From Candidatus Electronema aureum (GTDB lineage: Bacteria; Desulfobacterota; Desulfobulbia; Desulfobulbales; Desulfobulbaceae): DNA of 7,672 nucleotides. How positions within the stretch are numbered: the first letter of the stretch is position 1; each line of letters begins with the position of its first letter. The position numbers were made by a program, and so were the translations under genes. The stretch covers positions 1 through 7,672 of the forward strand of contig NQJD01000066.1 of assembly GCA_004284765.1 (NCBI GenBank). Reading direction: 5' to 3'. Shown here piece by piece: positions 4,797 through 7,672 of the stretch. Below the pieces are notes generated by a model. That model did not search any database, was not told where the DNA came from, and worked only from the letters and a program-made list of their open reading frames with translations.

Positions 4797-5492
4797 ATGG
4801 CCAAACGTATGAAAGAAGTTTTTAGGTGCTATTACGGATTAGAAGAATCGGAATATGCTGTTCTTTGGAAAGATGCTATTTTTATTTTTGATGCAAATGT
4901 TTTGCTGAATTTGTATCGTTACAAAGAGAAAACTCGCAATGAACTTCTTGATGTTATTGATAAATTAAAAAATAGATTGTGGATACCGCATCAAGTCGGG
5001 CTTGAATTTCAGAGAAATCGTATCACCGTCATAAATGAACAGAACAAAAAATTCTCTGAAGTCAAGAAGATAATAAAAGAACATATTTCTGGAATAGAAA
5101 ACGATTTTAACAACATTCAGATAGACAAGAAACATGCGAATATTGACCCGACAGATATAATTTCTGCCTTCAAAAAAATTCAAGAAGATTTTTTTTCTAA
5201 ATTAGATGAATTAGAGAATAGCAGCATCAGGTTCAATTCAAATGATGCAATCAGAGATAGGTTAGATGACGCAATTCAAGAAAATATTGGCCCTCAGCCG
5301 GAAAATCAAGAATATCTTGATAATTTATATAAAGAAGGAGAACAGAGATTTAGCAGCAAAATCCCACCCGGATACAAAGATGACAGCAAAGGTGATAAGG
5401 AGTTCACTTTTGCTGGCCTTAAATATAAAAATAAATATGGAGACTTGATAGCATGGAAACAGATAATTGCTCATGCAAGAGATGTATCGTAG
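4797..5492 (+). CDS. PIN-like domain protein (DUF4935-type), N-terminal part; ends prematurely at TAG
   Basis: The ORF reads ...AVLWKDAIFIFDANVLLNLYRY...LWIPHQVGLEFQRNR...YKEGEQRFSSKIPPGYKDD...KYGDLIAWKQIIAHAR. This matches the PIN-like family consensus as I remember it (FD.NvLLnLYRY, IP.qV..E..rN, IPPGY.D, YGDlI.W.QI). AAGGA precedes ATG 4797. The expected following segment (..IIFVTDD.KEDWW..GPRPEL..) is absent. Confidence 0.75.
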   Translation: MAKRMKEVFRCYYGLEESEYAVLWKDAIFIFDANVLLNLYRYKEKTRNELLDVIDKLKNRLWIPHQVGLEFQRNRITVINEQNKKFSEVKKIIKEHISGIENDFNNIQIDKKHANIDPTDIISAFKKIQEDFFSKLDELENSSIRFNSNDAIRDRLDDAIQENIGPQPENQEYLDNLYKEGEQRFSSKIPPGYKDDSKGDKEFTFAGLKYKNKYGDLIAWKQIIAHARDVS

Positions 5493-6078
5493 CGAAAAAT
5501 TTATTGAACATGCAAATAAATTTTTAAGTACAAATATAAGTGAATCTGTAATCGAAGAAGTTAAAGAGATAAGGCAATACGATGAATCGCTGAAAGCTAC
5601 TGCCGCAAAGACTTCCAGTTATTCATTACAGAATGAAGCAGCAAGAGCTGCGTTAACTGAAAGTGGCTTTGATGTAGAGTCGGCACTTGAAGCATTGAGA
5701 GCTTATGATAATAACTTTCGGAAAGAGATAGATGCAACAAGAGGAATTATAGCAAAAGAAGCAGGCTTGGTATCTTTGAAAGATGAAATCTGTGCTACGA
5801 AGCCTTGCACTACTGCATATGAAGAAATATTGGCTTTTACTAAAGGACAAAGTGCAAAATCCATTGCTGAGTTAACAGAAGCAAATTTTTCCAATTGGAA
5901 CTCTGCTGGAGAAATATCGGCATTTGAAATGCAACAAACAGCTATTGATAAAATACAGAAAGAGATAGATGCAGTAAGAAGATATGCAGGAGATACTGTA
6001 GCAAGCAAAGCAGGCTTGGTAGCTTTAGCCTCTGCTGCTGAAGTTATAGCAGGTTATGATAAATTTGACAAAAAATAA
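5473..6078 (+). CDS. Continuation of the PIN-like protein in the +1 frame (C-terminal helical/repeat region); probably not an independent gene
   Basis: It begins ...QEMYRSEKFIEHANKFLSTNISESVIEEVKEIRQ, which resembles the F.MYs..rFle.A...l......eEv segment that follows the PIN-like core in full-length homologues. It overlaps the previous ORF by 26 nt in another frame. No Shine-Dalgarno precedes ATG 5473 or 5482. Stop is TAA 6076-6078. Confidence 0.6.
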   Translation: MQEMYRSEKFIEHANKFLSTNISESVIEEVKEIRQYDESLKATAAKTSSYSLQNEAARAALTESGFDVESALEALRAYDNNFRKEIDATRGIIAKEAGLVSLKDEICATKPCTTAYEEILAFTKGQSAKSIAELTEANFSNWNSAGEISAFEMQQTAIDKIQKEIDAVRRYAGDTVASKAGLVALASAAEVIAGYDKFDKK

Positions 6079-6273: not shown

Positions 6274-7594
6274 TCATTCAAGATCAACGATAGCCTGTAA
6301 CTCATCAGGCAATGATTGTTCTTTTCCAATCACCTTTCGTTCAATAAGAGCTTTTTTCAGTACCTTCCTGTAGCTTATTTCCATCTGATTATTGACTTCA
6401 TCAATATTTTTTCTTTCGCATAATATTTCATCATGGACGCTTAAAATAAAAATTCCTTTCTTTATCATGAGTTCAGATAGGCAATCCGTAATAATATTAG
6501 AGTCATAATACATTGCCTTAATCCCAAAATCAGAGGTGATGAAGCTGTCTAGCAAGACCTTCTTCTTTCAGTTTTTTACAAATAGCAATAATTGCAGAAT
6601 GCTCACTCTCAGCATTAAATGCAACAAGAGCCACTATCTTAAATATATCTCTATATTCATTACCATATCCATTTATGATATACGGGTCTTCGCAATATGC
6701 GATTCCTTTTAAGTGATAAGCTAAACGAGGGTGCATTGCTTTAAAATCAAGTCTTGCTAAAGGCTCATCAGAATTATTCAAATATATATTCTTTCTGCAT
6801 ATCTTTGGAAGATTAACCTATAATCCACCATACCAACGCCCATGCAATGACCATGAATTTCTGGAATACACCCGAAACATACTTTTCTTGTTTATTTCAA
6901 AATACATTTTATTGATATTTAATAAATCATTGCCTTTCTTTCCAGCATATTCATTTCGTGGATTTACTCCATTGAAATCATTGCATATTTCGTAATTTTG
7001 AATTAGTAACGATAACCTTCCTCTAACCTCTCCCTTGTATTCCTTTACCTCTTCCCCTCTTTTATCTGTCACTATTATTAAATTATCTTTCATCGAAGAA
7101 AGTTTCTCTAAATATCTCAGACTATAGTAATTTCTATTATCTATTTCAATCTTGTCTGAATCTATTATTTCACAATTCAATTCTTTCAAGATTATGCTAT
7201 TACTCTTCATGTATCCATACATATCATCTACGAAAGAAACTTTATCAACGGTCATATCTTCAGCCTTAACTGTAATATTTGACTCTTGATAAATCTTATT
7301 AACTTTTTTTATAAACTCTTTATCTCTTCTTATCTCTACTGAATCTTCATATTTTACAATTTTTGTAAAATATTTAGTTTTCTTCCCTTCTTTAATCGAA
7401 ATTCTTTCTGTCTTAACAATCAAATCATGGTCTAAAATATTTTCAAATATAACATTTCCTTTAATAGGAGAAAATAAATGCCTTCCTTGATCACTGAATA
7501 CCATCCTTGACTCTTTCCCTCTCTTTTCAGATTTATCAAAAAAATGGTAATGGTGAACCATGAGTGGCAAAGCGGACGGCTCCCTAAAAAACAC
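6274..7594 (-). pseudogene. Compact family-A (Pol I palm)-like polymerase gene with an unrecognised N-terminal region; one in-frame TAG and one +1 frame change
   Basis: There are three minus-strand pieces. Piece 1 is 7594-6818, ending ...SWSLHGRWYGGL-TAG. Piece 2 is 6817-6530 in the same frame: VNLPKICRKNIYLNNSDEPLARLDFKAMHPRLAYHLKGIAYCEDPYIINGYGNEYRDIFKIVALVAFNAES... Piece 3 is 6555-6274 in the +1 frame: ...MYYDSNIITDCLSELMIKKGIFILSVHDEILCERKNIDEV..., ending at TGA. The motif order matches Pol I: TGRLSS..PNLQNIP; motif A DYSQIELRxxAHL; D(I/P)(H/Y) then R-x3-K (motif B); QGxAADI; motif C (Q/S)VHDE. Candidate starts are GTG 7594, ATG 7561 and ATG 7504. Confidence 0.7.
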
Positions 7595-7672
7595 ATTGAA
7601 TTTACCATTAAAAACAATATAATATTGAAAAAGTTGACTTCCGACTTGGTCTCAGTTTTCAGAGGGCGAATG

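Follow-up and report, generated by a model that had tools for sequence, protein, structure and literature searches.

The locus studied here raises the question of why a gene whose rear half resembles the catalytic core of a DNA polymerase carries an in-frame stop codon inside that core. The gene lies on the minus strand of contig NQJD01000066.1 (assembly GCA_004284765.1) of the cable bacterium Candidatus Electronema aureum. The whole stretch of 7,672 nucleotides (nt) that was analysed is called the window, and loci with homologous genes carry L numbers. From comparison of the sequences, the catalytic half behind the stop is shown to be selected for translation, and the stop itself is retained. 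We consider it fairly probable that programmed or conditional decoding of UAG gates the production of a polymerase borne by a genomic island, and that this arrangement has decayed in the window.

The original prediction had joined three minus-strand open reading frames (ORFs; 6818–7594, 6530–6781, and 6274–6555) into one gene, and the ORF listing, the translation, and an intact paralogue in the same genome (L019: 416 codons, TAG, and 201 codons) all bore this out. The 250-amino-acid (aa) product of the first ORF was 100% identical to an annotated Ca. Electronema aureum protein. The boundary between the first and second ORFs is the in-frame TAG at 6818–6820, and that between the second and third is a frameshift near 6550. 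The features along the gene are as follows.

7546–7672, no strand assigned: end of an IS1-family insertion sequence (IS) with the terminal repeat GGTAATGGTGA..., which truncates the polymerase gene and runs past the window edge.
6821–7544, minus strand: remnant of the N-terminal region, equal to codons ~176–416 of the intact paralogue and ending in the β-hairpin motif HGRWYGGL.
6818–6820, minus strand: in-frame TAG (amber), conserved across the clade, with Trp (TGG) in two relatives.
6551–6817, minus strand: first part of the polymerase core, with VNLPKICRKNIY, then motif A LDFKAMHPRLAYHL (6751–6710, catalytic Asp), then the fingers helix YRDIFK (from 6655).
6550–6551, minus strand: junction of a 62-nt deletion, where ~21 codons were lost (TVNYKEAKKLLIDFREQHHAI in the database protein P0001) and the frame was shifted.
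6274–6549, minus strand: remainder of the polymerase core in the shifted frame, with DSFITSDFG, MYYDSNIITD (6513–6484), and motif C LSVHDEILCE (6444–6415, second catalytic Asp).

The motifs quoted in the original prediction were present where it had placed them, with HGRWYGGL at 6844–6821 and VNLPK from 6817 on the two sides of the TAG.

The TAG followed GRWYGG-L in the window and in L001/L002, L003, L004, L005, L007, L011, L012, L013, L014, L019, L020, and L021. These 13 TAG-bearing copies came from four named Electronema genomes and independent metagenomes, and the same site held TGG (Trp) in L008/L009 and L010. The codon lies between the hairpin Arg and motif A, inside the conserved motif GRWYGGL-x-VNLPK, and it was kept in all nine copies of the core clade (ten with the window's own). 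As it is common to all close relatives, it is not a private lesion, and the earlier proposal to repair it as such had to be given up. The ‘Gln’ that P0001 shows at this position is artefactual and stems from a gene call made with TAG=Gln.

The downstream frame of 201–203 codons was fully open in seven copies of this gene, which has a guanine-cytosine (GC) content of 30%. Pairwise ratios of nonsynonymous to synonymous substitution rates (dN/dS) were 0.07–0.21 downstream of the TAG, at dS of 0.3–1.5, and 0.14–0.35 upstream. The 12 codons after the TAG, among them that of R418, which is invariant across the family, kept N, P, K, R, K, I, and Y by synonymous changes (AAT/AAC, CCA/CCT/CCC, AAG/AAA, AGA/AGG). 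Invariant sites made up only 30% of the four-fold sites in the core clade, and 12% when the clades were taken together, so that retention of all three TAG bases by chance has a probability of ~0.03 to 0.002. In the neighbour-joining tree, the TGG-bearing L008 was sister to the core TAG clade (97%) and the TAG-bearing L020 and L011 branched outside. The TAG and TGG lineages interleaved with bootstrap values of 97–100%, and this placement implies two or more changes between TGG and TAG at the codon. TAG-bearing lineages were as little as 39–57% identical to each other.

L020/L021 had a second in-frame TAG, which replaces the Trp of SRNSW and precedes the shared one by ten codons. The double-TAG motif in L020 (1750–1960) and L021 reads FRVYSRGS-TAG-SCHGRYYGGL-TAG-TNLPK, with both TAGs at Trp positions, and the 621-codon frame of L020 was intact apart from them. 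Four of the five in-frame stops that arose independently in the clade were TAG, against ~30% expected from codon content (p~0.03). The relative at L010 (705–2627, 40% identical) held TGG at the site and eight TAGs elsewhere in an otherwise conserved ORF ending in TAA. Its gene caller had translated TAG as Gln, and its 3.7-kb contig is too short to judge genome-wide recoding or phage origin. The eight TAGs indicate that some members of the family occur in settings that decode TAG as an amino acid, of which TAG-recoded phages are an example. The decaying copies carried extra stops as well, namely Tyr/Phe to TAG near 2880 in L013, Leu213 TTG to TAG near 7282 in L004, and Gly to TGA in L014. No TAA was seen among the in-frame stops, against ~45% expected.

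Gene callers place a restart at a TTG 36 nt after the TAG, in frame, which gives a 189-aa ORF. This TTG was replaced by TTA in L004 and L007, by ATA in L011, and by CTC in L020, and the sole nearby ATG was out of frame; reinitiation after the TAG was therefore rejected. Given purifying selection on both sides and no conserved restart, the catalytic half would be made only by decoding of the UAG.

Fold, profile, and motif comparisons bear on the identity of this half. The AlphaFold (AF2) model was built on a 40-sequence alignment and reached a predicted local distance difference test score (pLDDT) of 81.9 and a predicted template modelling score (pTM) of 0.78; an earlier AF2 model from a 10-sequence alignment (pLDDT 60) was too poor for use. 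Foldseek against the PDB gave family-A DNA polymerases for all of the best 37 matches (best E 7.7e-6, prob 1.0), including apicoplast Pol, Aquifex, Bst, Klenow, Taq, and Pol nu, with Pol theta and mitochondrial RNA polymerases ranking lower. Among viral structures, the closest were uncharacterised phage proteins of 400–450 aa, ahead of Pol I and T7-like RNA polymerases. The structure search thus recovered the family-A palm of the original prediction, whereas the HMMER search proposed beside it gave no match to DNA_pol_A. Neither the repaired protein nor the 40 homologues matched any family in Pfam or NCBIfam, PADLOC had no meaningful match for them, and phmmer and hmmsearch of PDB sequences gave chance matches only, with no polymerase among them.

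At the profile level, hhalign aligned the family core with an alignment of eight Pol I sequences, assembled for this analysis, over 169 columns (Prob 85%, E 6e-6). It paired HGRWYGG..VNLPK with TGRLSS..PNLQNIP, LDFKSLHARLAYHL with DYSQIELRIMAHL in motif A, and VHDEIL with VHDELV in motif C (QVHDELVFE in Pol I), and the first part of the core (6551–6817) was aligned around D705 of E. coli Pol I. Against E. coli Pol I alone, only motif A was found (E 0.071), and nothing aligned with the single sequence of T7 RNA polymerase. The profile comparison is thus convincing only against the Pol I alignment and not against single sequences. The collinear Pol I motifs claimed earlier were reproduced by hhalign for GR..NLP, A, and C. 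The counterpart of motif B is uncertain, as invariance puts R466/K470 in the helix after motif A, but hhalign sets the Pol I RRSAK on the next helix (QRSAITAI). The O-helix Tyr was not conserved in the family.

G403, R404, R418, D434, K470, N478, and D560 (P0001 numbering) were invariant in the 40 homologues and R466 nearly so; distant members showed HDS in place of HDE at motif C. In the model, G403-R404 sit in the strand pair 391–394/402–406, D434 at the end of strand 431–435, R466 and K470 within helix 463–478, and D560 between strands 555–558 and 561–564. The intact protein consists of a family-specific N-terminal part of ~370–400 aa, modelled as helical for ~165 residues and then mixed α/β, and a C-terminal minimal family-A core of ~240 aa. 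The core elements are the β-hairpin with the invariant Arg, the motif A Asp, the fingers helix R...K, and the motif C HD(E/S). The predicted structure supports the assignment of the C-terminal part as a family-A (Pol I-like) polymerase core.

Several features of the original prediction changed when intact relatives were compared. These relatives had 611–646 codons (611–620 aa in the Electronema islands, up to 646 in other relatives), in place of the ~445-aa protein that it had assembled. Its unrecognised N-terminal domain of ~250 aa has indeed no library match, but it is the rear 235 residues of a region of ~400 residues. No exonuclease or other nuclease family of Pfam or NCBIfam matched the repaired protein or the 40 homologues, in agreement with what had been noted before. 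The strongly shortened fingers were partly a product of the 62-nt deletion.

The profile search of 1.84 billion representatives gave 141 relatives, many of 520–620 aa with the same architecture. All 40 aligned members matched PHROG 4756, which is annotated as ‘unknown function’. The C-terminal domain was present in 128 INPHARED phage records, and three plasmids or chromids also had it. Most of these phages are large ones of Vibrio and Aeromonas, in which the homologue is a single gene. Paracoccus versutus has a 619-aa homologue directly after an integrase. Megablast searches of plasmids and of E. coli genomes with the window gave no match, and scans of IMG/VR with two alignments gave no relatives. 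The protein gp134 of Ma-LMM01, tried as a proxy for the minimal polymerases discussed below, proved to be an unrelated DnaG-type primase.

The neighbourhood of the gene indicates what kind of element carries it. In the Electronema islands, the island integrase immediately precedes the polymerase gene, with tRNA-Leu or tRNA-Pro alongside, and variable cargo and resolvases lie downstream. The polymerase followed an integrase in L001, L013, L014, L019, and Paracoccus (the adjoining integrase of L019 is broken by an IS), and resolvases were nearby in the window, L001, L002, L014, and L019. Tabulation of the neighbours of homologues, which the original prediction had proposed, showed a constant polymerase–integrase pairing and a cargo that varied from island to island. 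The cargo includes a set resembling the ABC-three-component (ABC-3C) type, PIN_8, a toxin-antitoxin pair, and DnaJ/TPR, and no helicase gene was conserved beside the polymerase in the island loci compared. Within the window, the Pfam search confirmed the toxin-antitoxin pair (PhdYeFM/PIN), the resolvase (Resolvase and a resolvase fragment), and the PIN-like nuclease (PIN_8) reported before, and also found a split P4-type phage integrase. The prediction of a replicase or a conflict role thus kept its first half, as the context fits a mobile-element replicase, and nothing pointed to a defence role of the polymerase itself.

This context and the motifs resemble those of TV-Pol, the minimal superfamily-A polymerases of transposons and viruses (Iyer, Abhiman, and Aravind 2008, PMC2579912). 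TV-Pols have the hairpin Arg, a palm of the RNA recognition motif (RRM) type with two Asp, RxxxK fingers, and no nuclease domain; some carry an extra N-terminal domain and lie near a lambda-type integrase or gamma-delta resolvase at integration hot spots (PMC2579912). The present family is alike in the hairpin Arg, the two palm Asp, RxxxK, the lack of a nuclease, and the integrase/resolvase context, and Paracoccus, listed in the TV-Pol paper, also holds homologues of this family. The N-terminal domain of TV-Pols was predicted as all-helical, in contrast to the helical and then mixed α/β model obtained here. To our knowledge, an in-frame stop codon has not been described in any TV-Pol. The statement in the original prediction that no family could be named for this architecture holds for curated models, as only PHROG 4756 matched, but the TV-Pol/CCPol-MP type had already been described.

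The sole biochemically tested enzyme of this kind is CCPol-MP of SCCmec, which performs de novo primer synthesis (PMC7581432; bioRxiv 10.1101/2022.12.02.518924), and CCPol is a primase-polymerase only with MP, a partner with an oligonucleotide-binding (OB) fold like that of single-stranded DNA-binding protein (SSB) (PMC7581432). Both have an A-family domain without active exonucleases on a mobile element, adjacent to a recombinase. CCPol is accompanied by MP and the Cch2 helicase gene, neither of which is conserved beside the present gene; it is recognised by NCBI as PolA, whereas this family has no Pfam or NCBIfam match; and it occurs in Firmicutes, whereas this family occurs in Desulfobulbaceae islands, Proteobacteria, and their phages.

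On the basis of the family (CCPol-MP and the prediction made for TV-Pols) and the integrase/tRNA context, we infer by analogy that the polymerase is most likely an island-borne primase-polymerase used after excision, which would prime and extend DNA on the excised island. At the UAG, most ribosomes would terminate and release a 409-aa N-terminal product. Full-length polymerase would come from the few ribosomes that read on, or from all ribosomes if a certain condition applies. In this way, the UAG would control how much polymerase is made, or when. A single UAG fits simple leakage, but two in series fit it poorly, so the double-TAG clade points to efficient or conditional suppression.

The arrangement resembles that of viral polymerases expressed through leaky stops, such as the UAG of murine leukaemia virus (MuLV) gag-pol, the UAG of tobamovirus 126K/183K, and the UGA of alphavirus nsP3/nsP4 (reviewed in PMC7026636). 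In both cases a conserved in-frame stop precedes the catalytic part, and an abundant N-terminal product with a rare full-length one would result. The viral systems belong to eukaryotic RNA viruses and use defined 3′ contexts or pseudoknots, and no comparable signal was detected here. The present stop lies inside a polymerase motif at a Trp position, and the L020/L021 clade has a second UAG at a distance of ten codons. TAG-to-Gln recoded phages, which switch code with a suppressor tRNA (bioRxiv 10.1101/2021.08.26.457843; PMC9523058), are also alike, as their genes contain in-frame TAGs and their expression is thought to depend on a suppressor tRNA made during infection; within the present family, L010 has eight such TAGs. 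Unlike them, the Electronema islands are chromosomal, the host uses TAG as a stop, conserved TAGs (one or two) occur in this single gene, and the islands yielded no suppressor tRNA.

A stricter form of the proposed gating, in which the UAG or UAGs serve as a conditional switch and the polymerase is completed only when decoding is supplied in trans, appears rather unlikely as a specific account. One source could be an infecting TAG-recoded phage, which would bring a suppressor tRNA(CUA) or interfere with release factor 1 (RF1); such decoding would trigger replication of the island in the manner of a satellite. L010 and the TAG-recoded phages motivate this helper-phage suppressor hypothesis and are not a demonstration of it. 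The other source could be adenosine-to-inosine (A-to-I) editing of UAG to UIG, read as Trp, for which the amber/W site of hepatitis delta is a precedent. Each conserved TAG replaces a Trp codon, the TAG is kept with no drift to TGG, and L010 has eight TAGs; these facts fit the switch without showing it.

Several results weigh against gating by UAG decoding and against the function proposed for the product. No tRNA(CUA) was found in the window or the 11 scanned loci, and no stimulatory RNA structure was detected around or 3′ of the TAG (RNAalifold −0.75 and −0.65 kcal/mol, no covariation). TAG terminates 5 of the 46 host neighbour genes, which speaks against a recoded host. Weak leakage through the two serial UAGs of L020/L021 would be extremely inefficient. 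The extended UAG-spanning protein is a predicted product, and no readthrough product was seen. The primase and polymerase activity is likewise attributed to the gene product by analogy, this gene has no conserved neighbour equivalent to the SSB partner or the helicase of CCPol, and its probable placement with TV-Pol, which has Sputnik V13 and CCPol as named members, is drawn from fold, motifs, and context. Finally, the window copy, L004, and also L013 and L014 (one extra stop each) are decaying, so that part of the clade is not under selection now.

Rfam gave no match in the window. A weak five-pair hairpin, UAUGG-N4-YUAUA, was observed at 6817–6833 on the minus strand in all 10 sequences; its stem includes two bases of the UAG, the U and the A. 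This hairpin is kept only through bases that are also constrained by coding, and it has negligible energy and no covariation.

The decay just described would be expected if the TAG were an old inactivating mutation and all TAG copies were drifting pseudogenes, and the IS-broken integrase of L019 would suit this as well. We regard this explanation as strongly disfavoured and scarcely credible, since dN/dS downstream of the TAG is lower than upstream at dS of up to 1.5, the frame behind the TAG has stayed open in seven copies at 30% GC, and the TAG occurs in lineages of 39–57% identity with a TGG lineage nested between them. The copies are also not very recent, as dS ranged from 0.3 up to saturation. 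Purifying selection on both halves is equally expected from two genes, and the enzyme could then be split: translation would really end at the TAG, a catalytic fragment of ~190–200 aa would be made separately by coupling or reinitiation, and this fragment would assemble as one subunit with the 409-aa N-terminal protein as the other. The separate 189-aa ORF annotated by gene callers agrees with this, and the TV-Pol paper has the N-terminal domain as a possible stand-alone neighbour gene (PMC2579912). Nevertheless, the proposed TTG start is lost in L004, L007, L011, and L020, the 12 codons that separate it from the TAG, that of R418 among them, are conserved as protein, the stop lies inside GRWYGGL-x-VNLPK and not at a domain boundary, and the TGG relatives are single polypeptides. 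A split enzyme is for these reasons improbable.

Sense decoding by the host at all times, through a natural amber suppressor tRNA or a pyrrolysine system in Electronema, would explain the excess of TAG among the in-frame stops. TAG is also the rarest stop of the neighbour genes, and the second conserved TAG of L020/L021 and the extra TAGs of L013 and L004 suggest a specific tolerance of this codon. Under such decoding, ordinary neighbour genes would not be expected to end in TAG, as some still do, and TAG and TGG should exchange freely, yet 9 of 9 core copies (10 with the window) have TAG. No other island gene in the host loci showed a conserved in-frame TAG; the integrase of L004, considered as another such gene, is a plainly degraded copy. 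The literature search found no paper that ties cable bacteria to pyrrolysine, with both terms co-occurring only for anaerobic methanotrophic (ANME) archaea, and none of the papers listed on recoding mentioned cable bacteria. Constitutive decoding is accordingly doubtful, with a low probability in our estimate. The polymerase might also serve as a defence or conflict effector that synthesises DNA or RNA in an anti-phage response with toxin-antitoxin, PIN, and ABC-3C-like partners, as the islands hold the defence-like cargo DUF2326/MC6/SMEK_N, PhdYeFM-PIN, and PIN_8. This is very unlikely, because the cargo changes from island to island and the polymerase–integrase pair remains constant, the homologues are single genes in Vibrio and Aeromonas phages and integrase-adjacent in Paracoccus, and none of the 40 homologues had a PADLOC match below E 0.001 (three matches were listed at E 0.0018–0.0033, each for one member only). 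The gating of an island polymerase by programmed or conditional UAG decoding therefore remains the reading that we prefer.

The window copy itself is a dead pseudogene of a probable island replication gene. Its two private lesions relative to L019 are the IS1 truncation and the internal 62-nt deletion. The two lesions of the original prediction were the frameshift, which this deletion explains, and the TAG, while the IS1 cut at 7544/7545 had been overlooked. The N-terminal remnant was 90.8% identical in DNA to L019 9238–10209, with homology beginning exactly at 7544 and FFDKSEKRG (7543–7517) as the first homologous residues. The first ~17 codons of the ORF listed at 258 aa come from the IS end, which was 100% identical over 127 nt (7546–7672) to L019 14209–14335, the end of an IS1-like element encoding InsA/InsB-like ORFs. 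At the deletion, the BLASTN alignment stopped at 6551/6550, L014 and L019 had ~60–83 extra nt there, and the deleted segment was present in all homologues. The C-terminal tail ends at the stop TGA at 6274–6276. As the IS1 removed the gene start and ~175 N-terminal codons and the deletion broke the core, the window copy is no longer functional.

Further observations concern the surroundings of the gene in the window. Both window ends (1–127 and 7546–7672) are IS1-family ends in the same orientation, 98.7–100% identical to the element at L019 14209–15091, and the 7.4-kb segment between them is thus bracketed like a composite transposon. The left copy showed an internal duplication of ~22 nt near its end and appears to cut a clostripain-family fragment (Peptidase_C11) at 87–899 on the plus strand (Pfam E 6e-22, profile positions 132–307 only). 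The P4-type integrase at 1057–2080 on the minus strand (Arm-DNA-bind_3, Phage_int_M, Phage_integrase) is frameshifted into two overlapping ORFs. Its region was 86% identical to L001 14801–16221, and the GC content at ~1000–2000 was 58–61%, against 30–45% in the rest of the window. The PIN_8 protein (E 8e-53) and an overlapping 203-aa ORF without Pfam match lie at 4797–6078 on the plus strand; part of this pair was 88–92% identical to L013 5095–5867, which marks it as cargo moving between islands.

In other loci, a three-gene cargo, DUF2326/MC6/SMEK_N, adjoins the polymerase at L001 10043–13093 and L002 2454–5504, and we take this set to resemble an ABC-three-component conflict system. A small ORF of 95–121 aa, 91–96% identical between loci, follows the polymerase only in L012 (2959–3309), L014 (3934–4299), and L019 (10812–11099). 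The TGG-bearing relative at L008 (3867–9941) shares its contig of 10.9 kb with a RelE/MqsA-like pair and a plasmid initiator of the Rep_3 type, and a 61-aa ORF with an excisionase/AlpA-like look precedes the gene. The stop-free version of the polymerase may thus be plasmid-borne rather than on an integrated island.

The enzyme kind is already described in outline, and the conserved amber codon is the feature of most interest. Minimal family-A polymerases of mobile elements have barely been studied, with one member biochemically tested, and this branch has no curated model despite its 128 phage records in INPHARED. Gene callers split these genes into a 409-aa and a 189-aa ‘hypothetical protein’ or mistranslate them with Gln at the TAG. 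If the proposed decoding is true, an amber codon conserved in a catalytic core with selection on both sides would be a rare bacterial example of a replicase controlled by recoding. Such a codon would offer a handle on the UAG decoder of cable bacteria, on the gating of island replication, and on how islands may exploit the codes of recoded phages.

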